DNA from: Chthoniobacteraceae bacterium
GTDB taxonomy: Bacteria > Verrucomicrobiota > Verrucomicrobiia > Chthoniobacterales > Chthoniobacteraceae
NCBI GenBank assembly: GCA_037190965.1
Contig: JBBCKI010000063.1
Location: forward strand, 18,206 to 82,205
Reading direction: 5' to 3'
Length of the DNA stretch: 64,000 nt
The notes under the pieces were generated by a model. The model had not been told where the DNA came from. It saw nothing but the letters and a program-made list of their open reading frames with translations, and did not search any database. The stretch's first letter is position 1, and every line of letters begins with the position of its first letter. The position numbers and the translations under genes are program-made. Shown one piece after another: positions 18,812 to 55,510 of this stretch.

Positions 18812-19870
18812 ATGAGCAATTCGCAAATGCGAGCGATCATCAAGGAGACGGCGGCACCGGGGCTCACCCTCACCGAACGCCCGATTCCCACCCCCGGGCC
18901 GGGTCAGGTCCGGATCAAAGTCAAAGTAGTCGGCATCTGCGGGACCGACCTTCATATCTGGCTTTGGGACAAATGGGCGGCGAGCCGCGTCAAGCCGGGC
19001 ACCATCGTCGGACATGAATTCATGGGCGTCGTGGACGCGCTGGGCGACGGCGTCACCGGCATTTCCGTCGGCGACCGCGTTTCGGGCGAAGGCCATATCG
19101 GCTGTGGCCGCTGTTACACCTGTCGCACGGGGAACTCCCATATCTGCGAGCATGTGGACATCATCGGCATCGATGTCAACGGCTGCTTTGCCGATTACCT
19201 GCTGCTCCCCGCCACCAATGTCTGGCCGCTTTCCGACGACATTCCCGACCACCTCGGGGCGATTCACGACCCGTTTGGCAACGCGATGCATACGGTGATG
19301 AGCGTCCCCGTTTCCGGGAAAACCGTGTTGATCATGGGCTCAGGCATGATCGGGGCAATGGCCGTGGGAATCTGTCGCGCGATCGGCGCTTTCCAGATCA
19401 TTGCGGTCGATCCGAACCCGGAGAAACTCAATCTCGCGCGGCAAATGGGAGCGCACCACACGCTTGATCCCCGTTTGCATGACGTTAAAAAAATCATCCG
19501 TGAATTAACCAAGGGCGAAGGCGTCGACACGCTGCTGGAGATGTCCGGCAACGGAGGGGCGATCCGCTCCGGGCTGGATCTGACGCGCAACGGCGGTCAT
19601 GTCGCCCTGTTGGGAATTCCCGCCGAAGAGGTCTCGCTCGATCTCGCCCGCGACATCATCTTCAAAGGGCTGACCGTGCATGGCATCAACGGGCGGCGCA
19701 TGTATGAAACCTGGTTCCAGTGTACCGGCTTCCTGCGCAACCGCCTGCTCGACCTCTCGCCGATCATCACGCATCATCTCCCCTTCGAGTCGTTCGAAAA
19801 AGGGTTGGAGTTGATGAAATGTGGCAAGGCGGGGAAAATCGTTCTTTATCTCGACAAAACGGAAGCATGA
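18812..19870 (+). CDS. tdh: L-threonine 3-dehydrogenase
   Basis: It has Zn-ADH motifs GICGTDLHI, GHEFMG, VSGEGHIGCGRCYTCRTG and DPFGNAMHT, plus GINGRRMYETW. It is adjacent to kbl. Confidence 0.95.
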   Translation: MSNSQMRAIIKETAAPGLTLTERPIPTPGPGQVRIKVKVVGICGTDLHIWLWDKWAASRVKPGTIVGHEFMGVVDALGDGVTGISVGDRVSGEGHIGCGRCYTCRTGNSHICEHVDIIGIDVNGCFADYLLLPATNVWPLSDDIPDHLGAIHDPFGNAMHTVMSVPVSGKTVLIMGSGMIGAMAVGICRAIGAFQIIAVDPNPEKLNLARQMGAHHTLDPRLHDVKKIIRELTKGEGVDTLLEMSGNGGAIRSGLDLTRNGGHVALLGIPAEEVSLDLARDIIFKGLTVHGINGRRMYETWFQCTGFLRNRLLDLSPIITHHLPFESFEKGLELMKCGKAGKIVLYLDKTEA

Positions 19871-21048
19871 ACCAGACCTTTCAGGACGACTTGACTAGTG
19901 AACTCGCGCGCCTACGGCAGGCGGGTACTTACAAGCACTTTCACACCATCGACTCTCCGCAGGGGCCGCTCGTGCAGATGGACGGAAAGGAAGACGTCGT
20001 CGTCCTCTCTTCCAACAACTACCTCGGCCTGGCAAACAACCCCGAGGTTGTGCAGGCGGGCATTCGCGCGCTGGAGAAGTATGGAGCGGGAACGGCTTCC
20101 GTTCGCTTTATCTGCGGGAAGTTCGGCATCCATCAGGAGCTTGAAGACGAAGTAGCCGCGTTTGTCGGCACGGAGGCTTCCCTCTCCTTCGTCTCCTGCT
20201 GGACTGCGACGGAGGGGCTCTTCCCCACGATTGCGGATGAAAACACCGCCATCTTCTCCGACGAACTCAATCACGCCTGCATCATCGATGCCTGCCGCCT
20301 AGCCAGCAAAGCGAAGCGCACGGTCTACAAACACGCCAATGTCGACGATCTCCGCGCAAAGCTTGAGCTGCATCGGGACACCCATCGCAAGATCGTCGTG
20401 ACCGATGGCGTCTTCAGCATGGAAGGCGACCTCGCCCCATTGCCCGACCTCGTCGAGATCTGCCGCGAATACAATGCCATCCTCGTGGTGGACGATTCCC
20501 ACGGCACCGGCGTCGTCGGCAAGACAGGGCGCGGCGTGGCTGAACACTTCGGGTTGCTCAACGAGATCGACATCATCACGGGAACACTAGGCAAAGCGCT
20601 CGGCGGCGCGGCAGGTGGCTTCGTTGCAGGCCCTCGCCCGTTGATTCAATATCTGGAACAGAAAGCGCGCACCCAACTCTTCAGCAACGCGCTCCCCGCC
20701 ACCGTCGCGGGAAGCGCCCTCGAAGCATTAAGGCAATTGAAGGTGCATCCCGAATGGGTCGAACGCCTGCATGAGAACACCGCGTGGTTCCGCAAGGCGC
20801 TGCGCGATGCCGGATTTGATCCGCTTGAAGGCGACTCGGCCATCGTGCCCGTCATCATCGGTGAAACGGCAGAGGCCATCCGCGTCAGCGAAGAACTTCT
20901 CCGCCACGGAATCTTTGTCACCGGCTTCGGCTACCCGGTCGTGCCCGAAGGCAAAGCCCGAATTCGTTTCCAGGTTTCAGCCGCCCACACCCGCGAGCAT
21001 CTGGAGAAAGCGCTTGCGGCGCTTAAGGCCGTACGGCCGCAGAAATGA
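19867..21048 (+). CDS. kbl: Glycine C-acetyltransferase (2-amino-3-ketobutyrate CoA ligase)
   Basis: Motifs SNNYLGLA, ASVRFICG, TDGVFSMEGD, GTLGKALGG and YPVVPEGKARIR are present. It has an ATGA overlap with tdh. Confidence 0.95.
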   Translation: MNQTFQDDLTSELARLRQAGTYKHFHTIDSPQGPLVQMDGKEDVVVLSSNNYLGLANNPEVVQAGIRALEKYGAGTASVRFICGKFGIHQELEDEVAAFVGTEASLSFVSCWTATEGLFPTIADENTAIFSDELNHACIIDACRLASKAKRTVYKHANVDDLRAKLELHRDTHRKIVVTDGVFSMEGDLAPLPDLVEICREYNAILVVDDSHGTGVVGKTGRGVAEHFGLLNEIDIITGTLGKALGGAAGGFVAGPRPLIQYLEQKARTQLFSNALPATVAGSALEALRQLKVHPEWVERLHENTAWFRKALRDAGFDPLEGDSAIVPVIIGETAEAIRVSEELLRHGIFVTGFGYPVVPEGKARIRFQVSAAHTREHLEKALAALKAVRPQK

Positions 21049-23908: not shown

Positions 23909-24261
23909 TGATCTTTTCTTTCCGGGTGATTTTCGCAGTTTTTGCCCGAGCACTCATTGGTTTCCTTCATGCATCAGGTTTTCGGGAAAGTGCCTGAATT
24001 TTTTGCCGCAGCTCCCCGGCGGATAATGGCTTTTCGGGGATAAAACATGGATTTTTGGGGTAAAACGACGCAATTAAGGCCCGGCGAATCGAGATTCACC
24101 GGGCTGAGGAGCGACGTTTTGAGCCAAAGAGACGCTTTTAGCCCGATCTCCAATGCTGGAGCGAGCGGAACTGCGCAAGAGCCTGGAGCAGAAACGGTTG
24201 AGGAGAAGCGCGGTCGTATCCTTTGATACGACGCGTTTCGACGAAGTCGTTTATGCCCAGG

Positions 24262-24335
24262 AAATTGCGCAAGGCCGCCGTGATCAACTTCGGAGTTCGG
24301 GTTTAGCACAGGGGTGGCAGGGCGATGGAATTCAC
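24262..24335. repeat. Degenerate copy of the sequence adjoining the tmRNA 3' end (putative att remnant)
   Basis: AAATTGCGCAAGGCCGC-11 nt-TCGGAGTTCGGGTTT matches 32569-32610. It is followed by GTGGCAGGGCGATGGAATTCAC, which resembles the tmRNA 3' end GTGGAGGCGAGGGGAGTTGAAC. Confidence 0.6.
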
Positions 24336-24789
24336 GGGAAGTACCAATCCGACCGCGAGCATCGAAATTTCAACACAGCTATCGCTACAGACATGGCGTT
24401 CGGCCTCAAGTTTTCGCGGAATAAGCTCCCCTTTCGGCGATTTTCAATCATACAAAATAAGAAACCCTTATCAAGATCACCCTCAGTCCTCTAATGTCCT
24501 GATTCCAGAAGCGCAGTTCTCCTCATTTCGGGCGGAAAAGGTCACGGGGGGTATTCACCCCTCTTACGTTGAGACCAAAGCGCCTCCGATAATACGAAAT
24601 CGCTCCCTCCTGAAGAAGAATCTGACGATGTGCCGCGCCAGTGCCTCCGGCTTCAGAAATCAAAGAGGATGGGTTACGGCTTGCAGATTTTGAGGAATCC
24701 GAGCAAAGATGAATCAAACTTTTATAAAACCTTAAAAGCGAGCGCCTCCAAACCGCTCGGAGACAAATATTTAATCCAAATTTGATCCA

Positions 24790-25917
24790 ATGAGGGACTT
24801 ATCCAGTATGCGTTCGGAGCCGACCTCGCAGTTAAAATTGCTGCTGGTTGAGGACGACGCCTCCGTGCTCGCGGCGCTACGGATGTTTTTGAAGTCCGAC
24901 TATGAAATTCATTCGGCGTCCACGGTGAGCGCCGGGATAAATCTCTTCAAAACCCTGCAGCCTGCGCTCGTACTGCTGGACTTGCGCCTTCCGGATGGAG
25001 ATGGACTGAATGCCTTGCGCGAGATACGGCTAATTAGTGCAACGGCCCCCGTGATTATCCTAACCGGTTACGCCTCAATGGGATCCATTGAAGAGTCCCT
25101 GCGCCTCGGAGCTTCCGATTTTCTGCATAAACCGTTCAAGGGATTCGAGCTGAAGTCGCGAATCGATCAATTGACCGGCCGAAATGCACCGCCCCCTCCC
25201 CCTAAAACTCCGGAAGAAAACGAAGAGCAGAAAAAAAAAGAACTGACTGAACTGGAATATCGGGCAAATGCCTCCGCGATGTTTCTGCACGATGCCGCCG
25301 GGCCGGTAACGACCGCGATGACGGCTGCCCAATTTCTAAACGAAGCGATCACCGCATCCCCTGATCACTTCGACCAAAGCTTGCATAAAATGAGCAAGCT
25401 CTTGTGCGATGCGATGAACCTTATCTCGGGGCTGTTTGAACAGAGCCGTTCCATCGAGCAATTATGCGACATGGTGGCCACGGAAGTCCCCGTCTTGAAG
25501 ATTCTCGGCCCGACCATCGACCTGCTGCGCCCGAAAATCAGGAGTCGCGACATTACGATGAATGTTGAGGGAAAGCTTGAACATACTAGGTTGAGAGTTA
25601 ATCATCTTGCATTGATTCGAGTCCTTTCCAATCTCCTGCACAACGCCATCGATGCCGTGGAAGACAATACTGGCAGGGTCAACCTGACCATGAATCTAGA
25701 AAAAAAATGGGTTGAGTTTACCATTCAGGACAATGGTTCCGGCATCCCCCCTCAATACATGGAAAAAATTTTCGAAGCCCATTTTACAACCAAACCGGAA
25801 GGAACCGGCATGGGCCTCTATATCTGCAAACACCTGATAGACAGCATGGAAGGCATGCTTACTGTACGAAATGAACCCGGCCACGGGTGCTGCTTCTCGG
25901 TTAAAATCCCTCGCTAA
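24790..25917 (+). CDS. Response regulator-histidine kinase hybrid (REC-HisKA-HATPase), PhcR-like architecture
   Basis: It has a REC domain (VEDD..LLDLRLPD..KPF), H-box FLHDAAGP, N-box NLLHNAIDA, DNGSG and GTGMGL. An alternative start is at 24808. Confidence 0.85.
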   Translation: MRDLSSMRSEPTSQLKLLLVEDDASVLAALRMFLKSDYEIHSASTVSAGINLFKTLQPALVLLDLRLPDGDGLNALREIRLISATAPVIILTGYASMGSIEESLRLGASDFLHKPFKGFELKSRIDQLTGRNAPPPPPKTPEENEEQKKKELTELEYRANASAMFLHDAAGPVTTAMTAAQFLNEAITASPDHFDQSLHKMSKLLCDAMNLISGLFEQSRSIEQLCDMVATEVPVLKILGPTIDLLRPKIRSRDITMNVEGKLEHTRLRVNHLALIRVLSNLLHNAIDAVEDNTGRVNLTMNLEKKWVEFTIQDNGSGIPPQYMEKIFEAHFTTKPEGTGMGLYICKHLIDSMEGMLTVRNEPGHGCCFSVKIPR

Positions 25918-25919
25918 TT

Positions 25920-27347
25920 ATGACTGCCCCGAACTCTGAAACCGATAATGACAGCATTATCGTTTGCGAAAACAGCCAAGGCGTTACCGTTCGTGCCATC
26001 CTACTCAGGATGACTCGCTATACGGTGAGCTTCGAAGTCTACAATCCTTACAGCATCCTTCAGCTTTCCGAAGTTCTGGGAAGCTTTCGGATCATCATCG
26101 GCGGAAAAATCCTTTACTCAGGGCGAGGGATTGTCTGCAACATGGTCAATACGGGCATCGTGCTCGTTTGCGAAGCCTCGCTCGATGAGGAAAGCTGGCT
26201 TGAGCTTGATCTCCTCGCCCCGTGGGCGCAGGTGGAGCGGCTCGCAAGTGACTTTGAACGCATCGTCTCCGAATGGGGAAAGATGGAGCAGGTGTCACCC
26301 GAGCTCAAGGTGATCGTCTCCGACATGCAGACACTTCTTTCCGACATGCGGCGTTGGCTCGAACAGGTCGAGCTTGCCATTCGTTCGGGCTCTCCCCCCG
26401 AAAGAAGGAAGCTGGAGCTGACGATCATCGAACGGCTCAACACCTTGATTCTTCCGGTCACTCAAAAGCTTTTCGAGCGGTTCGAGGAGATTGCCGGAGG
26501 CACCAAGGACGAAGTTGTGGCGGTGCATCGCGCCTACGCGCGTCGCCAGCTTCACCCTCTCGTGCTTTGCTCCCCCTTCCTGCACCGGACTTTTCAGAAG
26601 CCGCTTGGCTACGCCGGCGACTACGAGATGGTCAACATGATCTTGCGGGATCCCGTCGAAGGCGCCTCTCTCTTCGCCAAGATGCTCAACAGTCACTTTG
26701 TTGGCGTCGCGCCTGCGGAAGCACATCGCAATCGGGTCACCTACCTGACTGAAATGCTCAGCAGGGAGACGCGCCGCCGGGCCAAGCTTGGTTTGAACAC
26801 CAGGTTCTTCAATCTCGGCTGCGGACCCGCCAAGGAAGTGCAGAACTTCCTTAACGATGATGACTTGTGTGATCGCGCCGAGCTGGCATTGCTCGACTTC
26901 AACGACGAAACGCTCGCACAAACAGGAACGCTTCTGACCGACATCAAGATGAAGCTTCGCCGGTCAACACGGCTGCACATGATCAAGCGCTCCGTGCACC
27001 AGATCCTCAAGGAGGGGGCGCGCATCGGGGAAGTCGATACGGGAGCAAAGTACGACGTGGTTTATTGCGCCGGGCTCTTCGACTATCTTTCCGACCGTAT
27101 CTGCCATCGTCTGCTCGAGATTTTCTACGAAATGCTCGCCCCGGGCGGCCTTCTTGTGGCGACGAATGTCGAAGCGTCAAACCCGGCACGGGGGATGATG
27201 GAGTATTTAATGGACTGGCACCTGATCTACCGGACCGGAGATCAACTCAAAGCGCTCGCGCCCAAGGGTGCGCTCCCCGAGAACATCGCCATTACCGCCG
27301 ATGTTACGGGCGTTAACATCTTCCTTGAAGTCACCAAGCCGCAATGA
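25920..27347 (+). CDS. phcB: PhcB-like class I SAM-dependent methyltransferase (3-hydroxy fatty acid methyl ester signal synthase family)
   Basis: Motifs recalled from Ralstonia PhcB run along the whole length: NSQG, EVYNPYSILQLSEVL, VNTG, KPLGYAGDYEMVN, AHRNR, NLGCGPAKE, VYCAGLFDYLSD, MEYLMDWHLIYR and TGVNIFLE. The size (475 aa) is similar. Confidence 0.85.
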   Translation: MTAPNSETDNDSIIVCENSQGVTVRAILLRMTRYTVSFEVYNPYSILQLSEVLGSFRIIIGGKILYSGRGIVCNMVNTGIVLVCEASLDEESWLELDLLAPWAQVERLASDFERIVSEWGKMEQVSPELKVIVSDMQTLLSDMRRWLEQVELAIRSGSPPERRKLELTIIERLNTLILPVTQKLFERFEEIAGGTKDEVVAVHRAYARRQLHPLVLCSPFLHRTFQKPLGYAGDYEMVNMILRDPVEGASLFAKMLNSHFVGVAPAEAHRNRVTYLTEMLSRETRRRAKLGLNTRFFNLGCGPAKEVQNFLNDDDLCDRAELALLDFNDETLAQTGTLLTDIKMKLRRSTRLHMIKRSVHQILKEGARIGEVDTGAKYDVVYCAGLFDYLSDRICHRLLEIFYEMLAPGGLLVATNVEASNPARGMMEYLMDWHLIYRTGDQLKALAPKGALPENIAITADVTGVNIFLEVTKPQ

Positions 27348-30007
27348 ATTTGGTGAAACCGGGAGTCGGGCCGCCTGATTTCTCTTTGGAAGAGAGCGCG
27401 GCCCCCTCAAACGATCTTAAACAGGCTTTCTTTGAGTATAATCGCGACGTCCGCATCGCGAACTCAAAGATCGCCTGCATGCTGGTGATCGTCTTGATGC
27501 CCGTCGGTGTGACGCTCGATTATTTCGTCTATCCGGAACAAACCGGGTTCTTCCTGGTGCTGCGACTGATTTGTTCGGCGCTCGCAGGAGGATTGTGGGC
27601 GCTGCTGGGAACGCCCTTCGGCTATCGTCATTTCCGCGTTCTGGGGATGGGGTGGTTCGTGCTTCCGTCCTTTTTCATCAGCCTGATGATCTTCTTCTCC
27701 GAAGGGGCCAGCTCTCCGTACTACGCGGGGCTAAATCTGGTGTTGATCGCCGTTTCGTGGGTTGCCCAGATCGATTTTGTCGAGAGCTTGATCGCTGTGG
27801 GCTTGACGCTGCTGATGTATACGCTCGCGTGCCTGGGGCATGGAGGAGGCTCCGGCTCAGAGTATTTCAATAGCTTTTACTTCATCATCCTGACGGGCAT
27901 CATCGTCGTCACCGGCAGCTACTTCCTAAACAGCCTGCGTTTTCGGGAATACGCCCTCCGTTCCGAGCTCGACCGCAACCGGCACGAGCTTCAGGAAAGC
28001 AACGCCAAGCTGGTGGAGCTTGATCGCGCAAAATCGGCTTTTTTTGCCAACGTCAGCCACGAACTTCGCACGCCGTTGACGCTTCTCATCGCGCCGCTCG
28101 ACCGTTTACGCCATCGCGACGCGGGCTTCCCTGCTCATGAAGAGGGGGAAATGCTCGACATCATGTACAACAACGCGATGCGGCTCCTGCGCCTCATCAA
28201 TGACCTGCTCGATCTCGTGCGGCTCGATTCCGGCGCCATCCAGATCAAGCGGGAGAAGGTGGAACTGCTCCCATTTTTGGAAGGAATCGCAAAATCGGTT
28301 TCCGTCGTCGCCGAGCAGAGAAAGCTCAAGTTCGAAAGCCGCTTCTCACCTCAAACGCAGACATCGGCCTCGATCGACCGCGACAAGCTCGAGAAAGTCA
28401 TCCTGAATCTCCTCTTCAACTCGTTCAAGTTCACCCCCGAGCGCGGCCACGTCACCTTTACGGGCACCGTGGAAGAGGGACAACTGATCGTGAGCGTAAG
28501 GGACACCGGCGCGGGGATTGCCGCCTCCGATCTGCCGAGGATTTTTGACCGCTTCTGGCAGGCGGAAACCGCAGCAACACGCCGCTATCAGGGAGTCGGT
28601 ATCGGATTGGCGCTCGTCAAAGAATTAACCGAAGCTCACGGTGGCCATGTCACTGTTGAAAGCGAACCAGGCAAAGGAACATGCATCCAAATCACGGCTG
28701 ATATTATGGGAACTCTCCACGAAGAACCAGAACCGGTGCCACAGGAAGTGGTCAATGCCCCAGTTGAATCGGAATGGCTGGTACAGTTATACCGGCGAGC
28801 CGAATTTTTCCCCGCCCACGTATTGGCAGGCAGCCAGACAAACGCTTCTCCGGAGGAATCCAGCCAGGATAAACCGTTGGTGCTCATCGCCGACGACGAG
28901 CCGGAGATGCGGCGATTCCTCACTTCTCAGCTCAGAGGCCGCTACGCGATTCGCGAGGCGCGCAACGGCACCGAGGCGCTGGAACTCGCCCAGAGCCACG
29001 ATTTCATTCTGATTCTGCTCGATCTGATGATGCCGGGCATTGACGGGATCACTCTCACGCGGCAACTCCGCGAGGAAGCCCGCACGGCTGCCGTCCCCAT
29101 AGTCATTCTCACCGCACGCGCCGACGAAGATTCCAAGATGCAAGCCCTCGAAGCCGGGGCGACCGATTTCCTGACGAAGCCTTTCGCCAGCAGTGAACTG
29201 ACGGTACGTTGCCGCAACCTCGTCCTGCAGCAGCAATTGCAACTGACCCTCGCCGGAAAAACCCGGGAGTTGGAAGCTGCCCTGGATCAGATCAAGGAGA
29301 CCGAAGCCCAGCTTGTTCACCAGGCTAAAATAGCCTCGTTGGGACAGTTAAGTGCCGGGCTCATCCATGAGATCAACAATCCTCTCAATTTTGCCAATAC
29401 TGCGGCCCATTTGATCCAGAAACGCTTTTCCAAACTCGCCCCGGAAGAGCGCGAATCCCTGCAACTTCCCATCAAGGATCTTCAGGATGGAATCCGCCGG
29501 GTTTCCGATATTATCAGCAGCCTGCGGTCGTTTACACACCCCGACGTCAGCAACTTCGCCTCCACTCCCCTGCACGAAGTTGCGGAAACATCGGCACGGT
29601 TTGTGCAACTTGACCCCTCGGAAATCACACTCGAGATCAACATTCCGCCCGAGATCGAGGTTTGGGGAAACCGCAACCAACTCATTCACCTTTTCATCAA
29701 CCTTATTCAGAACGCCAGCGACAGCCTCCGCCAAAAGGCCGCACCGGAGAAAAAAATCAAGTTGGAAGCGTCATTGCAAAGTGGCCGCATTCTGGTGATA
29801 TGTGAGGACAATGGCGCAGGGATCGAGACCAACGTTATCAACAAGGTATTTGATGCATTTTTCACCACGAAACCCGTCGGATCTGGCGTCGGCCTGGGCC
29901 TAAGCATCAGCCATCGCATCGTTCAGAACCACCAAGGCGAAATTCGTGTGGAAAGTGAAGCAAACCAATACTGCCGTTTCATTATAACCCTCAATCCTCG
30001 GAGTTAA
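27344..30007 (+). CDS. PhcS-like membrane hybrid sensor kinase (about 6 TM-HisKA-HATPase-REC-HisKA-HATPase)
   Basis: It has an N-terminal multi-TM domain (SSPYYAGLNL), H-box 1 SHELRTPL, a REC domain (DDEP..LDLMMP..KPF), H-box 2 IHEINNPL and two complete ATP-binding domains. It has an ATGA overlap with phcB. Confidence 0.85.
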   Translation: MNLVKPGVGPPDFSLEESAAPSNDLKQAFFEYNRDVRIANSKIACMLVIVLMPVGVTLDYFVYPEQTGFFLVLRLICSALAGGLWALLGTPFGYRHFRVLGMGWFVLPSFFISLMIFFSEGASSPYYAGLNLVLIAVSWVAQIDFVESLIAVGLTLLMYTLACLGHGGGSGSEYFNSFYFIILTGIIVVTGSYFLNSLRFREYALRSELDRNRHELQESNAKLVELDRAKSAFFANVSHELRTPLTLLIAPLDRLRHRDAGFPAHEEGEMLDIMYNNAMRLLRLINDLLDLVRLDSGAIQIKREKVELLPFLEGIAKSVSVVAEQRKLKFESRFSPQTQTSASIDRDKLEKVILNLLFNSFKFTPERGHVTFTGTVEEGQLIVSVRDTGAGIAASDLPRIFDRFWQAETAATRRYQGVGIGLALVKELTEAHGGHVTVESEPGKGTCIQITADIMGTLHEEPEPVPQEVVNAPVESEWLVQLYRRAEFFPAHVLAGSQTNASPEESSQDKPLVLIADDEPEMRRFLTSQLRGRYAIREARNGTEALELAQSHDFILILLDLMMPGIDGITLTRQLREEARTAAVPIVILTARADEDSKMQALEAGATDFLTKPFASSELTVRCRNLVLQQQLQLTLAGKTRELEAALDQIKETEAQLVHQAKIASLGQLSAGLIHEINNPLNFANTAAHLIQKRFSKLAPEERESLQLPIKDLQDGIRRVSDIISSLRSFTHPDVSNFASTPLHEVAETSARFVQLDPSEITLEINIPPEIEVWGNRNQLIHLFINLIQNASDSLRQKAAPEKKIKLEASLQSGRILVICEDNGAGIETNVINKVFDAFFTTKPVGSGVGLGLSISHRIVQNHQGEIRVESEANQYCRFIITLNPRS

Positions 30008-30016
30008 CCTACCATC

Positions 30017-31273
30017 ATGATGAACAACCTGTACGACTACAAAAAGTTTGGACTCCTCTACGTGGATGATGAGGCCCAAACCGCATCGAACTTTAAGGCC
30101 TACTTTTCCGACACCTTTGACGTGGAAGTTGCCACAAGCGGAGAAGAGGCATGGGAGATTTTCTCCGCCAATAAAAACCGCTTCGCCATCGTCATGAGCG
30201 ATCAGCGGATGCCCGGCAGCAGCGGTGTCGAACTCCTGGAAAAAGTGCGTGCCGCCAGCCCCCGTGTCCTGCGTATTCTCGCCACGGCATACTCGGACAT
30301 CGAGGCCGCCATCGCCGCCGTCAACAACGGCGCCATCTATCGCTATGTCAACAAGCCGTGGGACCCGCCCACGCTGGAAATGGAACTCAAGCGCGGCATG
30401 GAGTTCTTCCTGGTTCAGCGCGAACGGGATTCCCTGATGAAGGAAAAACTGTCGGCGCTTCAGCGCATGATGGTGACCGATCGCCTCTTGAGCCTTGGAG
30501 TTTTTGCCGCGGGGCTCAACCATCATTTGCGGAACTCCCTCACCGCAGTGAAAACATTCCTCGATCTCGCTCCCTTCCAGTTGCAGAGCGAGAACATCGA
30601 CATCAACAACCTTCGTAACCCCAACTACTGGCGGGATTTTTACTCCACCGTCCAGGGGCAGATCTGCAAGGTGGTCGGATTGCTTCAGGATATCAACGAA
30701 ATCCCCCAACCCGCCGGAACGCCTTTGGCGGATTCCGTCTCGTTGAACACGCTCGTTCAGAGTGCTTACGACACCCATCGTGGAGCCTTTGACGACAAGA
30801 AGATCGACGTCCGGCTTGAACTCGACCAGATTCCCGAAATCAAGGGCAATCGGCCTCTTTTGGAAAAGGCGCTCAAGCTCCTGTTGGCGGACGAGTCTTC
30901 AAATGTCCCCGCCGCGGGGAAAGTAACGATCAAAACAGCGGCCGACGTCGATAGTGCCGGACGGCAAGGAATCAAAATCGAGCTTCTCGACAATGGCCCG
31001 GGCCTTTCAGCCGCAAAGCTCGACTGCATCTTCGATCCGTTTTTCGTGCGGCAGGACAATCCCAGCGAGTACGGACTCAATCTCCTGACCTGCTTCTTTG
31101 TCGTTCACCACCATAGCGGAAGCATGCTTGTTGATCGCAGTGATGAAGGTGGGGCTCATTTCAAGATATTCTTGCCGCTGCAAGCCAGGGATAGCGACCT
31201 CCGCCAGGAAGAAACCTATTTGGAGCGCGTCTTCGAAATGGAAAAGACCTGGGAAAAGATGTTGATCAACTAA
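30017..31273 (+). CDS. PhcQ-like response regulator with a degenerate kinase domain
   Basis: It has a REC domain (YVDDE..SDQRMPG..TAYSD..YRYVNKPWD) and the linker ERDSLMKEKL. The H-box is atypical (NHHLRN), the N-box Asn is missing and G2 reads EYGLNL. Confidence 0.8.
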   Translation: MMNNLYDYKKFGLLYVDDEAQTASNFKAYFSDTFDVEVATSGEEAWEIFSANKNRFAIVMSDQRMPGSSGVELLEKVRAASPRVLRILATAYSDIEAAIAAVNNGAIYRYVNKPWDPPTLEMELKRGMEFFLVQRERDSLMKEKLSALQRMMVTDRLLSLGVFAAGLNHHLRNSLTAVKTFLDLAPFQLQSENIDINNLRNPNYWRDFYSTVQGQICKVVGLLQDINEIPQPAGTPLADSVSLNTLVQSAYDTHRGAFDDKKIDVRLELDQIPEIKGNRPLLEKALKLLLADESSNVPAAGKVTIKTAADVDSAGRQGIKIELLDNGPGLSAAKLDCIFDPFFVRQDNPSEYGLNLLTCFFVVHHHSGSMLVDRSDEGGAHFKIFLPLQARDSDLRQEETYLERVFEMEKTWEKMLIN

Positions 31274-31319
31274 TAGGCGAGGCCCATCACCTCTCTTGGA
31301 AGAAGTAACATTTCGTGCG

Positions 31320-31349
31320 TGGCCCGGTTTTCCAATGGAAACCGGGCCA
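31320..31349. terminator. Stem-loop between the convergent phcQ-like and ECF sigma genes
   Basis: TGGCCCGGTTTTCCA-a-TGGAAACCGGGCCA is a near-perfect inverted repeat. Confidence 0.65.
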
Positions 31350-31427
31350 TTTGAATTTGATTAGCGCAATCCCCTCCTCCACCGGCCATGGCTACCTGCA
31401 TGAGCAAGGCCTCCAATCATCAACGCC

Positions 31428-32102
31428 TCAACTGAGTAGACGATAAGCCGACTCAGAGAACGCAAGAATATCGCTCCAACCCAATTCGAACGCAGGCTCC
31501 ATTTCCTTAATGAAACGCCGAGTCGAATCGGCAATTTTCTCTTCAGCAGTTGCCAAACGTCGGCCAACGCTGCTCTCGTGACACGCCCACAATACGGCGA
31601 CCTCCCTCCGGGTTAACCCATGACCATGGACAAGTTGAAGGATGACGAGATCCTCCGGATCGCATTCCCGGAAAGCATTGCGAAGGGCTTGTCCGACGAT
31701 TTCGACGGCTACCGGATCGACCAGCCCGTCCGACGCTCCTTCGCTTAAGCTCTCGCTTTCCTGCAACGCCCGCAATTCCTCAATAACTTCGTGGCGAACC
31801 TTCTCGTGCCGCTTTCTTGAAATCCAACGATTAATGGCGATGGCCGCCAGCCATGGCTGAAGGATTGATCTCCCGTCAAATCGGTGAAAAAGAGGAACAC
31901 GGCCGGTATCGCCTGCGAGACAGTCTGCCCAGATCGCCGCAAGAATTTCGTCCGCTTCGCTTTCAGACGCACCGCGCCTCGTCAGGACCGCTCGCAGGTA
32001 AGGACCGTTAATCCTCTGGAGCTCCAAAATGGACTCTGTGTCACCCTCCAGACAACGCTGCACGAGGTTGATGTCACGAATTTCGTCTAACTGTTCACCC
32101 AT
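31428..32102 (-). CDS. ECF-type RNA polymerase sigma factor
   Basis: It has DINLVQRCLEGD, region 2 (EADEIL..RFDGRSILQPWLAAIAIN) and a region 4 HTH (LTRREVAVLWACHESSVGRRL). Confidence 0.8.
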   Translation of the reverse strand: MGEQLDEIRDINLVQRCLEGDTESILELQRINGPYLRAVLTRRGASESEADEILAAIWADCLAGDTGRVPLFHRFDGRSILQPWLAAIAINRWISRKRHEKVRHEVIEELRALQESESLSEGASDGLVDPVAVEIVGQALRNAFRECDPEDLVILQLVHGHGLTRREVAVLWACHESSVGRRLATAEEKIADSTRRFIKEMEPAFELGWSDILAFSESAYRLLS

Positions 32103-37226: not shown

Positions 37227-40200
37227 ATGTACCTCCAGTCGCTCGAAATCTTCGGCTTCAAGTCGTTCGCTGCAAAGACGGTTCTCCAGTTTCACCGGGG
37301 AGTCACCGTCATTGTCGGGCCCAACGGTTGCGGGAAGTCGAACGTGCTCGACGCGATCCGGTGGGTTCTGGGGGAACAATCCGCCAAGGCGCTCCGGGGC
37401 GGCGAAATGGCGGACGTCATTTTCTCCGGCACTGATTCCCGCTCCGCCCTCGGCATGGCGGAAGTCTCCATGACGTTCGCGGACTGCGAGAAAGACCTCG
37501 GCGTGGCATGGAACGAGGTGACCATCACCCGCCGTGTTTTCCGCGACGGCCAGGGCGAGTACCTGCTCAACAAGACCCCCTGCCGGTTGCGCGACATCAA
37601 CCAGCTCTTCATGGACACCGGCGTGGGCCGGAGCGCCTACTCGATCATGGAGCAGGGCAAGATTGACCAGATTCTTTCCTCCCGCCCGGAGGATCGCCGC
37701 GCGATCTTCGAGGAAGCCGCAGGAATCACAAAATTCAAGGCGCAGCGCAAGGAGGCTCTTCGCAAGCTGGAAGCCACCGAAGCCAATCTGCTCCGGTTGA
37801 CGGACGTCATCCGCGAGGTGAAACGCCAAATCGGGTCCCTCCAGCGGCAGGCCGCCAAGGCACGCCGTTACAAGGGCCTTCTCCATGACGTCCGTGTGCT
37901 GGAGACACACAACGCCAAGCGCCTTTACGACGAACTCGACGCCCAGCGCAACACCGCCGCCGACGCGATGGCGCGGCTCTCCAGCGACCAGGGGCTGCGC
38001 GAACGCGATCTGCAAGAACAGGAGCGTACCGTGGGCGAGCAGCGGATGGAGTTGGAGATCATGGAGGAGAAGCTCACCGAGGCGCGCCAGGCGGTGAACG
38101 AACTCAAAAACCGGATCACCCAGGGCGAGAGCCGCATCGGCTTCAACGGAGAACGGGTGGCGGAATTTGCCGGGCTGGTGGAGCGGTACGAGCGCGACAT
38201 CGCCGGGGCCGAGGAGAAACTGGAGTTCCAGCAGACGCAGATCGAAAACGCAGATGTCGAGTTGGAGACCATCCAGCAGAGCCTCGCCAGCGAAGAAGCG
38301 TTGCTTGGCGAACGGCAGGCTTCCGCAGGAAACCTCGTCGCCGAGCGCGCCGAGACGGAACGGCGTTACCAGGGCATTTTTTCCCAGATCACCGGGATCG
38401 AGGGGCGTCTCTCCTCGCTCCGCAGCGAGATTGCCGCCAGCGTCAACACCCGCGACGGCGCGCATGCGAGAATGGCCATCCTCGCCGAGGAAATCGAAAA
38501 ATTCAACGGGGCCGCCGACGCGCTGGAGGCGAAAAACCTCGAACTGACCGCGCAGGTGGAACAAACCACCGGGCAACTCGAAGCGCGCAAGTGCGAGGTC
38601 GGCGAAGCCGAAGTCCTCGCGCGCAACACCCAGGCGGAACTCTCCGAGATCGACAAAACCGTTCACACCGAGGGCCGCCGTTTACAGGAACGCGAGTCAA
38701 AGCTCGACGTGCTTCGCCAACTGAACGCGGACGGCGAAGGCTTTTCGCAGGGAACACAGGCCGTCCTGAAGGGACTCGACGATCCGTCGTTCTACAAACC
38801 GGCGGTGATGGGTGCGCTGGCGCAGTTCATCGAGGTCGGCTCGGCTTTCATTACGCCCATCGAAGCCGCGCTGGGGCAGAACCTTCAGGCGATCGTCATG
38901 AAGGACACAATGATCGCCGAGGCGGTGGTCAAAAATCTCGTGCAGAAGAAGCTCGGGCGTGCCTCCCTCGCCTTACGGCAGCTCTGGCCGGAGAACGCCT
39001 CCCCTGCCCCCGTTACCGCGCTCGACCTCCCGGTCGGCGCGCTCGGATGGGCGGCAGACAAGGTGAAAGCCCAACCCGAAGTCGAACCGCTCGTGAAGCG
39101 GCTCTTGGCCGGAACGGTGATTGTCGAAAATCTTGAAACGGCGGTGCGTCTCGCGGCATCCGGCGCATCCTGGCAATTCGTCACGCTGGCGGGCGAACTC
39201 CTCACCCGCGAAGGCATTGTTCAAGGCGGACAAAACAAAGACGGCGGCACCTCCGTGCTCCAGCGCAAGTCCCAGATCACGGAGTTGGAGACGGAATCCC
39301 AAAGCATCCGCGCCGCCCTGGCCGAACTCACCGAACGCCGCGGCGATACCGCGTCCCGGCTTGAGTCCGCACAGGCCCGGCTTCAGGAGGCCCGCGACGA
39401 TTCCCAGACGCTCAACCTGACGCTCACGCATCTGCGCGGGCAACTGACCACCGTCGAACGCGAAATCAAAGAGACCGGCAGGAAAGCCCTCGCGCTCACC
39501 GCCGAGCGGGAGGCCATCGAACGCCGTCACGACGAAGCCGCCGCCAAACTTGGGCAACTCGACGAAGAGGCGGAGGCCGCCGCAGCCCAAATTTCCGAAC
39601 TCCAGGCGCAGCAAGGCGAACTTAACGATTCGCTTGCGGCCCTGCGGGAGAGCGAATCGATGCTGACCGGCGAGCTCAACGAAATGCGCGTGCGGGTCGC
39701 CACGGAGAAGCAGCGTTTTTCCTCGCTCCAGAATCAACGCCAACCGATGCATGCGCGGCTCTCCGAGTTGCGCGAGATGATCGAGCAGCGCCGCCGCGAC
39801 ATTGAAGGATACAATCTCAAGAGCACGCAACTGGCGGAAGACTCCGAGAACGTCCGCGCGGGTGTCACGCAGGCGCAGGGGCGACTGGGCGAAGCCGAGG
39901 AACGCGTGCAAACCCTGCTGACCGAACGTTCACAATTGGCGGCGCAGGTGGAAACGCAGGAGAACCTCCTGCGACAAACCCGGCACGATCTTGGCAAGAC
40001 CCACGAGCAGCGCACGCAACTGGAAGTGCGCGGTTCGAAGCTGCAACTGCGGCTGGAGAATCTCTGCGAGCATGTGCAGCGCCGCTATCAGTTCGACATC
40101 AAAGAGTTCGAGCCCGACACCTACGCGCTGCTGACCACCATCCGGGAGCAGAAGAAACGGCTCAAGGGCGGCCCCGTGGAAGAGAACGATGCGCCCCCGC

Positions 40201-41177
40201 GCGTCTTCTCCTCGGAGACGGATGCGAACGCGGCACCCGAGGCCAAAGCCGATCCCGAAACCGATGCCGTCGAACCGGTCGCCAAGGAAGTTGTGGAAGC
40301 CGTCGATGAAGCACCCGTTCCCATCGACGAACCGGTGGACTGGGAGTTCGTCGAGCGGATCGTCAAGGAACTCGACCAGAAGCTCGAATCGATGGGTCCC
40401 GTCAACATCGACGCCATTCAGGAGTACGACGAACTCGAAGAACGCTACAAATTCCTGGAACAGCAGAACACCGACCTCAACAACTCCAAGGCAGAGTTGC
40501 TGGAGGTGATCGCGAAGATCAACACCACGACGAAGACTCTCTTCGCCGAGACGTTCGAAAAAGTCCGCGTCAACTTCCAGGAGATGTTCACGGAACTCTT
40601 CGGCGGCGGAAAGGCCAACCTCGTGCTCCTCGACGAGAGCGATCCTCTGGAGAGCGGCATCGAAATCATCGCCAAGCCTCCCGGCAAACAGTTGACCTCG
40701 ATCACGCTGCTTTCCGGCGGTGAAAAGACGATGACGGCGGTGGCCCTCCTTTTCTCGATCTACATGGTCAAGCCCTCGCCCTTCTGCGTGCTGGACGAGA
40801 TGGACGCTCCGCTGGACGAATCGAACATCAACCGCTTCATCAAGATCCTCGACCGGTTTTCCTCGCAGAGCCAGTTCGTCGTCATCTCCCACAACAAGCG
40901 CACCATCGCAAAGGCCGACATCATCTACGGTGTGACAATGGAAGAGCACGGCGTCTCGAAACTGGTCGGCGTGAAGTTCACCAAACGCGAGGATTCCCAG
41001 CAAGGATCCGACGTGATCGGCGCGGGCAATCCCGCCCCGATCCCCAGCGTCGCCGAGAGCTTCGGCAAGCATGGCGATCTCCACAGCGAGCGGCAGCAGG
41101 CGCAGGCCGCCCCCGCCCAAGAGAAAGAGTCACCGGCCTCCGAAACCGCCTCCGAAGAAACGGAAGAGACCGCGTGA
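37227..41177 (+). CDS. smc: Chromosome segregation protein SMC
   Basis: It has GFKSFA, Walker A GPNGCGKSN, long coiled coils with a hinge, LSGGE and Walker B/D-loop VLDEMDAPLD. Confidence 0.97.
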   Translation: MYLQSLEIFGFKSFAAKTVLQFHRGVTVIVGPNGCGKSNVLDAIRWVLGEQSAKALRGGEMADVIFSGTDSRSALGMAEVSMTFADCEKDLGVAWNEVTITRRVFRDGQGEYLLNKTPCRLRDINQLFMDTGVGRSAYSIMEQGKIDQILSSRPEDRRAIFEEAAGITKFKAQRKEALRKLEATEANLLRLTDVIREVKRQIGSLQRQAAKARRYKGLLHDVRVLETHNAKRLYDELDAQRNTAADAMARLSSDQGLRERDLQEQERTVGEQRMELEIMEEKLTEARQAVNELKNRITQGESRIGFNGERVAEFAGLVERYERDIAGAEEKLEFQQTQIENADVELETIQQSLASEEALLGERQASAGNLVAERAETERRYQGIFSQITGIEGRLSSLRSEIAASVNTRDGAHARMAILAEEIEKFNGAADALEAKNLELTAQVEQTTGQLEARKCEVGEAEVLARNTQAELSEIDKTVHTEGRRLQERESKLDVLRQLNADGEGFSQGTQAVLKGLDDPSFYKPAVMGALAQFIEVGSAFITPIEAALGQNLQAIVMKDTMIAEAVVKNLVQKKLGRASLALRQLWPENASPAPVTALDLPVGALGWAADKVKAQPEVEPLVKRLLAGTVIVENLETAVRLAASGASWQFVTLAGELLTREGIVQGGQNKDGGTSVLQRKSQITELETESQSIRAALAELTERRGDTASRLESAQARLQEARDDSQTLNLTLTHLRGQLTTVEREIKETGRKALALTAEREAIERRHDEAAAKLGQLDEEAEAAAAQISELQAQQGELNDSLAALRESESMLTGELNEMRVRVATEKQRFSSLQNQRQPMHARLSELREMIEQRRRDIEGYNLKSTQLAEDSENVRAGVTQAQGRLGEAEERVQTLLTERSQLAAQVETQENLLRQTRHDLGKTHEQRTQLEVRGSKLQLRLENLCEHVQRRYQFDIKEFEPDTYALLTTIREQKKRLKGGPVEENDAPPRVFSSETDANAAPEAKADPETDAVEPVAKEVVEAVDEAPVPIDEPVDWEFVERIVKELDQKLESMGPVNIDAIQEYDELEERYKFLEQQNTDLNNSKAELLEVIAKINTTTKTLFAETFEKVRVNFQEMFTELFGGGKANLVLLDESDPLESGIEIIAKPPGKQLTSITLLSGGEKTMTAVALLFSIYMVKPSPFCVLDEMDAPLDESNINRFIKILDRFSSQSQFVVISHNKRTIAKADIIYGVTMEEHGVSKLVGVKFTKREDSQQGSDVIGAGNPAPIPSVAESFGKHGDLHSERQQAQAAPAQEKESPASETASEETEETA

Positions 41178-51981: not shown

Positions 51982-53565
51982 ATGAGTGAATCCTCCTCAC
52001 GCCTGGCTCACGAGCCCCTCGCCGTCGGCGGCCTTCCCGGGAGGGATTCCTACCGCCGGGCCGTGTGGTTGATCGTCGGGCTTGCCTTGGGGCTGCGCCT
52101 GCTGTGGCTGGGCATGAAGCCCCCTCATTTCGACGAGGGCGTCAACGGATGGTTTATCGATCAAATGACCCGGACCGGGTTTTACCACTACGACCCCGGC
52201 AATTACCACGGCCCCTTCCATTTCTACGTCCTCTTTCTTGCCCAGACGCTCTTTGGCCGGGAGATCGTCGCCTTTCGATTGCCGCTGGTGCTCATCAACG
52301 CGGCCACCGTCTGGCTGATCCTCCAATACCGGCGTTTCCTGCCATGGCGGGTCTGCACGATTGCCGCGCTGGCGTTCGCCCTCTCGCCCGGGATGCTCTT
52401 TTTCTCCCGCTACGCGATCCATGAGGCGTGGCTGGTCTTCGCGATGGTACTGGGAATCTGGGGGGTGGCCGAGCTTTGGACGCGAGGCACCGCCCGGGGG
52501 CTGTGGGCGGGGGTGATGGGAGTCGTCCTCATGATTTTGACGAAGGAGACCTACCTCGTGCATCTCTTTGCCTTCGCGCTGGCGTGCGGAACGCTCCTTC
52601 TGCTGGAGGTCTTTTCTCCCTCGTCGCGGGAAATTTCGGTGCGTCCCGTAAAGCAACGCTGGAACGTGGACACGCTGAACGCGACGCTTTTTGTTGGGGT
52701 TCTCTCAATCGTCTTCTTTTATTCAGGCGGCTTTCTCGACCCTTCCTCGCTTTCAGGCCTGGTGAAGACGTTTGCGATCTGGTCGAACACGGGCGTCGAC
52801 GGGAGCGGCCATGGCAAGGCGTGGTATTACTGGTTTGAACTGATGGGCCGTTACGAATGGCCCGCCTTGATCGGGATCGCCTTCAGCCTGCGCGCGGTCT
52901 GGCCCGGCATGAACCGGCTCAGTCGCCTGCTTGCCATTTACGGATGCGGCGCGCTGACGGCTTACAGCATCGTCAACTACAAGACGCCGTGGTGCATCAT
53001 CGCCATCATCTGGCCATTCTTCTTTCTCTTCGGCGATGCGGTGGATTCGGCTCTTCGATGGACCGAACGCAGGCCTCATTTGCGCTGGCTGAGCATTCCA
53101 ACCGCAGTGATCGCCATGGCAGCCGTTGGCGTCTCGGCGGCGGTGGGAATCCGGCTCAACTACTTCCGCCCCACCGATCCGAAGGAAAAATACGTTTATG
53201 TTCAGACCATGAACGATCTTTTCAAACTCACGGCTCCCCTTGAAAAGCTCGTGGCGCAGGATCCCGCCGCATATCATCTCCGAGGCCATCTGCTTCTTTC
53301 CGACTACCACCCCCTTCCCTGGGTGCTCGGTGATTTCACTGGCGCGATCATTTACCCCAGCCGGGACTCCCGGCCTCCGACCATGGATGCCTCCTTCCTC
53401 GTGGTGGAAGAAGAGCGGATTGCCGAAGTGGAGAAGGAATTGACGCAGCCTTACTTCGTCGACACCTTCCAGCTTCGCGACGGGTTGGTGCCGGGCAAGC
53501 TTTACCTCGACGCGGAGAAGTTCGCCCCGTTCTTCCCCGGTCGAACCCCCGAATTTTCGCCATGA
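51982..53565 (+). CDS. TIGR03663 / Agl23-like GT-C-type membrane protein
   Basis: It has HFDEGVNGWF, YHYDPGNYHGP, FSRYAIHE, TKET and YKTPW, plus many TM helices. Confidence 0.75.
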   Translation: MSESSSRLAHEPLAVGGLPGRDSYRRAVWLIVGLALGLRLLWLGMKPPHFDEGVNGWFIDQMTRTGFYHYDPGNYHGPFHFYVLFLAQTLFGREIVAFRLPLVLINAATVWLILQYRRFLPWRVCTIAALAFALSPGMLFFSRYAIHEAWLVFAMVLGIWGVAELWTRGTARGLWAGVMGVVLMILTKETYLVHLFAFALACGTLLLLEVFSPSSREISVRPVKQRWNVDTLNATLFVGVLSIVFFYSGGFLDPSSLSGLVKTFAIWSNTGVDGSGHGKAWYYWFELMGRYEWPALIGIAFSLRAVWPGMNRLSRLLAIYGCGALTAYSIVNYKTPWCIIAIIWPFFFLFGDAVDSALRWTERRPHLRWLSIPTAVIAMAAVGVSAAVGIRLNYFRPTDPKEKYVYVQTMNDLFKLTAPLEKLVAQDPAAYHLRGHLLLSDYHPLPWVLGDFTGAIIYPSRDSRPPTMDASFLVVEEERIAEVEKELTQPYFVDTFQLRDGLVPGKLYLDAEKFAPFFPGRTPEFSP

Positions 53566-55337: not shown

Positions 55338-55353
55338 GCCATCAGAGGTCTGT

Positions 55354-55510
55354 GGTGCGGTAGCACTGGTAGCACGCTCGCGCCGCCGAGCGCGGGTTTC
55401 GGCTCCCGTGGCTTCATGAAGGCCGCATCCCCAACACCACCGTCCTGCGGGGATGGGCGCTAAACGCGGCTTGTAAATCCATCCCGCGCTCGCGGCGCGA
55501 GCGGGCTACC
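55354..55510 (+). repeat. Repeat family A copy 4
   Basis: GGTAGCACGCTCGCGCCGCCGAGCGCGGG ... CCCGCGCTCGCGGCGCGAGCGGGCTACC lies between convergent genes. Confidence 0.85.

Follow-up and report, generated by a model that had tools for sequence, protein, structure and literature searches.

Does a verrucomicrobial operon encode a signal synthase together with its own receptor and, if so, would the signal be one that Ralstonia also uses? The operon lies in a window of 64,000 nucleotides (the whole stretch of DNA that was analysed) and was singled out, in the original prediction, as a Phc-like quorum-sensing cassette. In Ralstonia, the product of PhcB is methyl 3-hydroxypalmitate or methyl 3-hydroxymyristate, PhcS senses this ester, and the LysR regulator PhcA is the output of the system; both Phc and the Lvr system of Leptospira have been studied as virulence regulators. 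We consider it likely that the four genes described here are a phc-type signal synthase/receptor operon.

The four co-directional open reading frames (ORFs) span positions 24790-31273 of the + strand in the ORF list and are as tightly coupled as predicted, with 2 nt between ORF1 and ORF2, a 4-nt overlap between ORF2 and ORF3, and 9 nt between ORF3 and ORF4 (Table 1). The next gene past the terminator-like hairpin (31428-32102) lies on the opposite strand, and a sigma-70-type scan of the upstream non-coding region found no promoter-like site on the + strand. None of the four genes encodes a DNA-binding protein, so the target regulator would be encoded elsewhere. The assignment of the host to Verrucomicrobiota holds, since the Tdh encoded near the cassette shares 87% identity with a Chthoniobacteraceae MAG protein, 77% within Chthoniobacterales, and 74% with a Verrucomicrobiota MAG, falling to at most 60% in other phyla.

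Table 1. Features of the operon and its products (nucleotide positions refer to the window; residues refer to the protein named)
Feature	Position	Strand	Basis or remark
Non-coding upstream region, presumed promoter region	23954..24789	+	Between divergent ATP-grasp gene and ORF1
ORF1 (P0001, 375 aa), receiver-controlled histidine kinase REC-DHp-CA, LvrB-like architecture	24790..25917	+	Pfam, NCBIfam
ORF2 (P0002, 475 aa), PhcB-family SAM-dependent methyltransferase	25920..27347	+	BLASTP, AlphaFold2, Foldseek
ORF2 N-terminal PilZ-like beta-barrel	residues 12-88, nt 25953-26183	+	AlphaFold2 model
ORF2 helical domain	residues 101-289, nt 26220-26786	+	AlphaFold2 model
ORF2 class I methyltransferase fold	residues 294-472, nt 26799-27335	+	AlphaFold2 model
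ORF3 (P0003), whole, 887 aa	27344..30007	+	ORF list
ORF3 residues 1-205, PhcS-type multi-pass membrane sensor domain	27344..27958	+	Hydrophobic segments, PhcS alignment
ORF3 residues 206-887, kinase 1-receiver-kinase 2	27959..30007	+	Pfam, NCBIfam LvrA
ORF3 kinase 1	HisKA residues 229-297, HATPase residues 345-452	+	Pfam
ORF3 receiver	residues 513-622	+	Pfam
ORF3 kinase 2, PhcS-like	residues about 649-887	+	Pfam, PhcS alignment
ORF4 (P0004, 418 aa), receiver + degenerate kinase-like domain, PhcR/PhcQ family	30017..31273	+	Alignments, profile-profile
Terminator-like hairpin, operon end	31319..31350	+	14-pair stem, 8 G-C pairs, then T-rich tail

The original prediction proposed a reciprocal search of the methyltransferase against Ralstonia PhcB, for which we used the PhcB-locus protein of Ralstonia sp. 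R-29 (the gene preceding phcS in a species that does not belong to the named R. solanacearum complex). By BLASTP, residues 1-472 of ORF2 align with residues 1-462 of this protein at 40% identity (189 of 474 columns; E = 3e-111), each being the best and single hit of the other. All six motifs quoted in the original prediction are present along the translation, namely EVYNPYSI (residues 39-46), KPLGYAGDYEMVN (227-239), AHRNR (268-272), GCGPA (300-304), YCAGLFDYLSD (382-392), and TGVN (463-466), and their aligned counterparts in the R-29 protein are identical or nearly so. Across 52 sequences from two phyla, 49 columns are invariant, including the methyltransferase motifs GCGPA, LLDF, and YCAGLFDY; the SAM-binding motifs of ORF2 are intact, and Pfam returned a sub-threshold match to Methyltransf_12 alone (25.8 bits; cut-off 30). 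Judged from these alignments, ORF2 belongs to the PhcB methyltransferase family along its full length, and the homology extends beyond the SAM fold.

Membership of the family should not be confused with membership of the Ralstonia branch. In a quick maximum-likelihood tree, all 18 Burkholderiales sequences group together in a single clade (support 100), and ORF2 sits in a separate 14-row clade with Pelagicoccus-type sequences (support 99), so that a placement within the Ralstonia/Cupriavidus PhcB clade is rejected. The root of this tree is uncertain owing to the great length of the outgroup branches. Of the outcome that would have counted against the original prediction, a methyltransferase outside the PhcB clade with SAM-fold similarity alone, the first half was thus found, although the homology nonetheless covers the whole protein.

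The AlphaFold2 model of ORF2 (pLDDT 88) has three domains, and the best Foldseek matches of its methyltransferase fold are small-molecule methyltransferases. This bears on the alternative that ORF2 is a CheR-like protein methyltransferase that tunes the adjacent kinases rather than a small-molecule synthase, an idea that gains from the embedding of the gene among signalling proteins and from a distant relative of shorter length, encoded on a Deinococcus plasmid and annotated as "chemotaxis protein CheR." That label is uncurated, however, and the protein lacks the N-terminal third; no CheR Pfam family matched ORF2 itself, and PhcB, its full-length homologue, is reported to synthesize esters in the abstracts of PMC9197120 and PMC8578825. 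We consider a CheR-like role highly improbable and treat ORF2 as a candidate synthase.

The N-terminal barrel should be interpreted with caution. Residues 1-100, when modelled separately (pLDDT 86.8), have the PilZ proteins VCA0042, PP4397, BcsA, MrkH, YcgR, and Alg44 as their top structural matches, with a TM score of about 0.6 and all E values at 2e-3 or above. PilZ domains bind c-di-GMP through RxxxR and D/NxSxxG motifs. On reading the translation and the alignment by eye, no RxxxR was seen ahead of the barrel, and NSQG, which is conserved, misfits the usual D/NxSxxG; the Pfam PilZ model matched none of 42 N-terminal segments at E ≤ 1. We, therefore, reject a true PilZ domain and retain a weak likeness of fold to the PilZ c-di-GMP receptors. 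Because the barrel is common to ORF2 and the Ralstonia protein, it is a trait of the family and not peculiar to this cassette.

The first 200 or so residues of ORF3 contain several hydrophobic segments, are covered by no Pfam family, and align to PhcS residues 6-185. Six-frame searches of the whole genomes of two Ralstonia and one Cupriavidus necator returned exactly one match to this domain per genome, in each case the gene directly 3' of the PhcB homologue (E = 4e-19 to 1e-23); the same post-methyltransferase position was matched in 8/8 Burkholderiales loci examined (of 80 fetched) and in a plasmid locus. On this sequence evidence the membrane domain and the PhcS sensor domain are homologous, and the likeness is specific to PhcS. 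The remainder of ORF3 reads HisKA-HATPase_c-REC-(HisKA)-HATPase in Pfam; its kinase 2 shares 33% identity with the PhcS kinase core (E = 2e-45), and identity between ORF3 and PhcS ranges overall from 27% to 33%. The predicted receptor, therefore, stands as a PhcS-type sensor directly after the synthase, but not as a protein with the single-kinase architecture of PhcS, since it carries an extra kinase and receiver.

ORF4 is the one PhcR/PhcQ-like gene in the operon and matches both proteins, of which PhcR joins a receiver to an active kinase and PhcQ has a C-terminus that is no kinase behind its receiver. Pfam finds REC and a weak HisKA/HATPase_c; the alignment to the PhcQ receiver and linker has 36% identity (E = 1e-37), that to PhcR 25% over 390 columns (E = 3e-29), and profile-profile comparison gives E = 4.9e-52 for PhcQ and 6.7e-55 for PhcR, all of which upholds membership of this group. 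All of 45 family members have the receiver Asp, and their kinase half is degenerate: the ATP-lid Asn position holds D or E in 36 and N in two, 31 retain the H-box His, and a single Gly is left of the G2 box. The description of ORF4 as a REC-pseudokinase was, therefore, apt.

ORF1 possesses the architecture of PhcR (REC 81.5 bits, HATPase_c 95 bits), and its H-box His and N, G1, and G2 boxes are readable in the translation, though its similarity to PhcR/PhcQ is generic. Its profile was mixed with other receiver-kinases and was excluded from the profile-profile comparison. Receiver-controlled kinases have been described, with PhcR as an example, in an excerpt of PMC13269768. An equivalent of ORF1 lies directly upstream of the methyltransferase in 6/48 related metagenome loci. 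ORF1 is best classed, from its domains and alignments, as a generic receiver-controlled kinase and a lineage-specific addition, and not as specifically Phc-like.

When the operon is set beside phcB-phcS-phcR-phcQ of Ralstonia and Cupriavidus, both have a synthase of the same family, a sensor kinase gene right after it with a homologous membrane domain and kinase core, a PhcR/PhcQ-group receiver protein next, and no DNA-binding protein. They differ in the kinase and receiver that ORF3 inserts between its membrane domain and its PhcS-like kinase, in the single PhcR/Q-like gene where Ralstonia has two, in the degenerate kinase half of ORF4 (the R-29 PhcR keeps its N and G boxes in the alignment), in ORF1 upstream, and in the separate clade of the synthase.

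The closest parallel for the inserted part comes from Leptospira, where LvrA is described as PAS-DHp-CA-REC-DHp-CA and phosphorylates LvrB (excerpt of PMC5863495). The cytoplasmic part of ORF3, DHp-CA-REC-DHp-CA, has the order of LvrA, and ORF1, REC-DHp-CA, that of LvrB. The NCBIfam models align end to end with both proteins: LvrA (NF047465) pairs ORF3 205-883 with model positions 177-816 of 819 at 299.8 bits (cut-off 1200), and LvrB (NF047466) pairs ORF1 14-374 with 3-375 of 377 at 70.5 bits (cut-off 500). Scores so far under the cut-offs speak for architectural likeness and not for family membership, which we reject. LvrA, moreover, resides in the cytoplasm and has a PAS domain, whereas ORF3 carries a membrane domain of the PhcS type, and the excerpt describes no methyltransferase alongside Lvr. 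The cassette can be viewed as a Phc-type sensor that has been naturally fused to a relay of the Lvr type.

The synteny survey suggested with the original prediction was run on 80 metagenome loci, with denominators that vary with the length of DNA available. A sensor with the PhcS-type domain directly follows the methyltransferase in 60/61, the sensor-kinase-REC-kinase layout is kept in 37/38 loci with enough DNA, and an ORF4-like gene comes after the sensor in 32/32. The methyltransferase gene was present in 14/400 other sampled Verrucomicrobiota genomes, all 14 loci having both the methyltransferase-sensor pair and the ORF3 layout, and in 4/400 other sampled genomes of the Ralstonia phylum. 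The three-gene core of methyltransferase, sensor, and ORF4-like gene stays together across many genomes of two phyla; here, then, is a conserved relative of Phc in another phylum, with a fixed architecture of its own. Some of the surprise is tempered by the family being widespread (644 clusters at E ≤ 1e-30) and auto-named after PhcB, JGI pipelines already labelling many members as 3-OH-PAME biosynthesis protein.

In the relatives, the neighbouring genes suggest that the molecule is hydrophobic or a lipid. The methyltransferase is adjoined by a gene for a FadL/TodX-type outer-membrane channel in 15/43 related loci (in seven on the same strand and directly upstream), and genes for a ketosynthase, a ketoreductase, and a phosphopantetheinyl-transferase lie upstream of it in 2/43. 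The genes flanking the present operon are conserved in 0/94 related loci and so offer no hint of the regulated function.

Since ORF2 and the ORF3 sensor are true relatives of the Ralstonia signal maker and receptor, it is probable that the operon both produces and perceives a signal akin to a fatty methyl ester. By analogy, ORF2 would methylate the carboxyl of a fatty acid that bears a hydroxyl or some other modification, yielding a hydrophobic, diffusible ester, which would bind the membrane domain of ORF3 and change the activity of kinase 1. Phosphate would then pass to the internal receiver, which would control kinase 2, a relay logic shown biochemically for LvrA/LvrB in the excerpt of PMC5863495. 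The kinases of ORF3 may feed the receivers of ORF4 and of ORF1, the latter a predicted active receiver-controlled kinase. The dead kinase half of ORF4 may work by protein binding, as has been reported for PhcQ and PhcA. Of the proposed synthase-plus-receptor system on a methylated lipid, the homology and the pairing of the two proteins are borne out, and the lipid signal is argued by analogy with Ralstonia.

Quorum sensing is defined by its dependence on cell density. The same machinery might also work without population sensing, the methyl ester being a private or envelope-bound cue by which the maker cell senses its own product, so as to gauge fatty-acid or lipid A precursor supply, confinement, or diffusion. 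Synthase and receptor are translationally coupled through their overlap, no FadL-type channel gene was found in this genome (97% complete), and the modelled PilZ-like barrel may suggest intracellular gating of synthesis. The FadL-type channels beside the module in related loci fit outer-membrane passage of the compound, however, and an excerpt of PMC10653808 describes the homologous systems of Ralstonia and Cupriavidus as working through diffusible signals. We find a private cue rather unlikely and continue with a released ester as the working reading.

Would that ester be identical to those of Ralstonia and Cupriavidus, so that the verrucomicrobium eavesdrops on, or talks to, these Betaproteobacteria? 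ORF2 and PhcB have their whole-length architecture and most conserved residues in common, the ORF3 sensor domain is homologous to that of PhcS, and the DNA is from a soil metagenome (a habitat label only). Ralstonia strains with PhcB/PhcS pairs far more alike than these, however, already differ in chain-length specificity, and the tree puts ORF2 in another clade than any of its 18 Burkholderiales sequences. At 40% identity to PhcB and 27-33% to PhcS, homology does not fix the substrate of ORF2 or the ligand of ORF3, and the cross-talk originally envisaged is not inferable from such values; we judge an identical signal improbable.

A chemically distinct signal fits into a broader picture, which we offer tentatively: the verrucomicrobial form, with its synthase, its PhcS-type sensor fused to a kinase-receiver-kinase relay, and its receiver-pseudokinase, might be a widespread and possibly older version of cross-phylum lipid-ester modules whose signal is unlike the two Ralstonia esters, and Ralstonia Phc would be its trimmed-down offshoot. 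If so, many non-Proteobacteria of soil and water would carry an unrecognized quorum-sensing language. A literature search found no paper treating phc genes in Verrucomicrobiota, in keeping with the original claim that the system lacks an experimental description in this lineage; should the product be a diffusible ester, it would represent chemical communication in a phylum for which that search found no such signalling study. ORF2 is small and easy to express, which makes the signal directly discoverable.

The logic of the cassette has counterparts among unrelated proteins. In CqsA/CqsS and LqsA/LqsS, an enzyme-made fatty-chain signal is sensed by a multi-pass membrane histidine kinase encoded next to the synthase, and these alpha-hydroxyketone synthases are PLP-dependent acyltransferases. 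The Lqs system is described in the excerpt of PMC10653808. The sole PLP-dependent acyltransferase encoded near the cassette is rejected as an autoinducer synthase (211 bits; cut-off 428) and passes the glycine C-acetyltransferase model with 478.8 bits (cut-off 460).

The four-gene cassette is a genuine operon, truly related to the Phc system, and its receptor and relay follow a distinct, conserved design; the mechanism of the cassette, as read here from homology and genomic context, should be regarded as predicted. All four ORFs of the original prediction were found where it had placed them (see the table), with a spacing of 2 nt between ORF1 and ORF2, an overlap of 4 nt between ORF2 and ORF3, and a spacing of 9 nt between ORF3 and ORF4. 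The gene beyond the hairpin that follows ORF4 is convergent to the cassette. The host had been called a probable Verrucomicrobiota, and this assignment holds because the neighboring Tdh protein is 87% identical to one from a Chthoniobacteraceae MAG and at most 60% identical to any outside the Verrucomicrobiota. The source genome comprises 4.21 Mb in 73 contigs and is 97% complete; the sequencing runs containing the window stretch are all labelled soil metagenome, DNA, and belong to one study.

Coordinates of the cassette genes and of other features in the window
Feature	Position	Strand	Remarks
Threonine dehydrogenase and glycine C-acetyltransferase pair	18812-21048		Ordinary threonine breakdown
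ORF1, receiver-controlled kinase	24790-25917	+	375 aa
ORF2, PhcB-family methyltransferase	25920-27347	+	475 aa
N-terminal barrel of ORF2	25953-26183		PilZ-like fold by weak Foldseek matches
ORF3, sensor-kinase-REC-kinase	27344-30007	+	887 aa
ORF4, receiver with degenerate kinase half	30017-31273	+	418 aa
Terminator-like hairpin	31319-31350		After ORF4; 14-pair stem
ECF-like sigma-70 factor	31428-32102	-	41.3 bits vs superfamily cut-off of 42.9; convergent with cassette
1316-aa ORF	37227-41177	+	

Pfam gives ORF2 only a sub-threshold Methyltransf_12 match. Comparators were taken from a profile scan of species genomes, which returned 80 Betaproteobacterial loci, including nine from Ralstonia and several from Cupriavidus; because its first alignment row came from a Paraburkholderia plasmid, its ranking was skewed to Betaproteobacteria. 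The PhcB-type match in Ralstonia sp. R-29 precedes ORFs of 447, 384, and 339 aa, in the phcB-S-R-Q order described in an excerpt of PMC10653808. ORF2 aligns end to end with the R-29 protein (189/474 identities, E 3e-111), all six PhcB motifs named in the original prediction are kept in this alignment, and each protein is the other's sole match in the partner genome. In an alignment of 52 PhcB-family sequences from the two phyla, 49 columns do not vary. The AlphaFold2 model of ORF2 (pLDDT 88) has three domains, a beta-barrel at the N-terminus, a helical one, and a class I methyltransferase, and its Foldseek matches are small-molecule methyltransferases; a profile search for a solved PhcB structure found none, with a lysine methyltransferase as the top match (E 0.0012). 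The barrel is common to the whole PhcB family, including the proteins of the genus Ralstonia and of Cupriavidus. Modelled alone (pLDDT 86.8), it has PilZ proteins as its top structural matches, all weaker than E 1e-3, and Pfam PilZ matched none of 42 N-terminal segments of the family.

The original prediction had named clustering outside the PhcB clade with only SAM-fold similarity as one outcome that would speak against it. The similarity is not confined to the SAM fold, given the full-length alignment, reciprocal matches, invariant columns, and three-domain model; the placement outside the Burkholderiales clade, by contrast, is what the tree gives. In this quick tree, 18 Burkholderiales sequences form a single clade and ORF2 falls in another well-supported clade with Pelagicoccus-type proteins. 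The ORF2 homologues of Pelagicoccus, a genus with cultivable carriers, are 59-67% identical. A recent transfer from Burkholderiales is rejected on the basis of this tree, the 40% identity, and the differing receptor architecture. When short, distant methyltransferases were used as the outgroup, the Burkholderiales clade was nested among verrucomicrobial sequences; this rooting is taken as a lead only, because the outgroup branches are very long.

ORF3 has a HisKA-HATPase_c-REC arrangement followed by a second kinase core in Pfam, and its N-terminal ~200 residues carry several hydrophobic segments without Pfam annotation. Residues 22-200 align to the membrane part of the Ralstonia protein in the PhcS position, and for the second kinase core the best alignment is to the kinase of PhcS (33%, E 2e-45). 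To control for matches driven by composition, only the membrane domain (205 residues) was searched against four whole genomes; besides itself, it found exactly one match each (E 4e-19 to 1e-23) in two Ralstonia genomes and one of Cupriavidus necator, always the gene directly 3' of the PhcB homologue. Unlike PhcS, ORF3 has a kinase-plus-receiver unit inserted. In its cytoplasmic part the domain order is DHp-CA-REC-DHp-CA, which matches that of Leptospira LvrA as given in an excerpt of PMC5863495, although the NCBIfam alignment is far below cut-off.

Pfam matches in ORF4 are REC and weak kinase matches. It shares 36% identity with the receiver and linker of PhcQ and 25% with PhcR across 390 columns, and profile comparison gives E 4.9e-52 for PhcQ and E 6.7e-55 for PhcR. 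All 45 members of its family keep the receiver Asp; 36 have D or E in place of the ATP-lid Asn, only 31 retain the H-box His, and the G2 box has been lost; by these losses ORF4 is a conserved pseudokinase, as had been guessed. ORF1 (REC and HATPase_c in Pfam) has intact kinase boxes and the same REC-DHp-CA order as LvrB, and its similarity to PhcR and PhcQ is generic only. Its family profile gathered 62 receiver-kinases of mixed kinds, and the hhalign results from it were set aside.

Gene order was compared in 80 metagenome loci (45-92% identity). Where enough sequence was available, the gene immediately after the methyltransferase encodes a sensor with a PhcS-type domain in 60 of 61 loci, the complete ORF3-type architecture is present in 37/38, and an ORF4-like gene comes next in 32/32; only 6/48 have an ORF1-like gene immediately upstream, and these six belong to the closest relatives. 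Of the other Verrucomicrobiota genomes in an even sample, 14/400 carry the methyltransferase, each with an adjoining sensor gene, and these represent 9 of 185 genera, the window's own counted; none of the nine same-order genomes sampled carries it. A sample of the Ralstonia phylum gave 4/400 other genomes. The PhcB-like family as a whole comprises 644 clusters at 50% identity (E <= 1e-30).

Variant layouts include a sensor that is short and Ralstonia-like, its membrane domain joined directly to a PhcS-like kinase (L194:206-4249), an ORF4-like gene immediately 3' of the methyltransferase without a sensor (L162:957-3287), and an additional full-length sensor gene 5' of the methyltransferase (L148:273-8468). 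The Paraburkholderia graminis plasmid pPHS1_P, a conjugative plasmid of 494 kb, holds a phcB-phcS-like cluster that is complete and has two response-regulator genes (L001, 6995-11370), so Phc-type modules can travel on mobile replicons.

Homologues of ORF2 are labelled plain methyltransferases by NCBI. The JGI label [quoted passage not shown] is borne by 27/120 among the homologues listed and by members of 6/10 sampled clusters. An excerpt of PMC10653808 describes the phc cluster as narrowly distributed in Betaproteobacteria, on a search of Pseudomonadota only, and the co-mentions looked at in a literature search for phcB with Verrucomicrobi* were incidental.

For hints on the signal molecule, upstream neighbors in 43 related loci were scanned (97/110 ORFs; the 13 dropped were edge fragments or resembled ORF1). 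In 15 loci (L103, L127, L129, L134, L158, L160, L163, L168, L171, L178, L186, L188, L193, L196, and L197), the PhcB-like gene adjoins one for an outer-membrane channel of the FadL/TodX family (PF03349), and in seven of them the channel gene is directly upstream on the same strand; the source genome, at 97% completeness, had no FadL match. Fatty-acid or polyketide-type genes lie upstream in two of the 43 (L166:1569-5928 and L189:694-2265), where a ketosynthase, a short-chain reductase, and a phosphopantetheinyl-transferase stand just 5' of the PhcB-like gene, which suggests that some variants have dedicated acyl-chain synthesis. These neighbors are consistent with a lipid-like product, and the channel gene with a hydrophobic signal that would have to cross the outer membrane.

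The flanking ECF-like sigma, ATP-grasp, and Rrf2 genes and three small ORFs had no match in 94 related loci; since these flanks are common to none of them, the cassette moves as a unit. The convergent sigma factor was rejected as the output of the cassette, as it is not kept beside it in those loci. The upstream aminotransferase was likewise rejected as a CqsA-like autoinducer synthase because it scores as a glycine C-acetyltransferase and adjoins threonine dehydrogenase. Its listed start overlaps the latter by ~150 nt and the family match begins at residue 50; the true start is therefore probably later than listed. Further along, raised G+C (0.633) and a strong positive AT skew (0.263) mark the stretch that contains the 1316-aa ORF, and positions 52001-56000 have a strong negative AT skew (-0.25).
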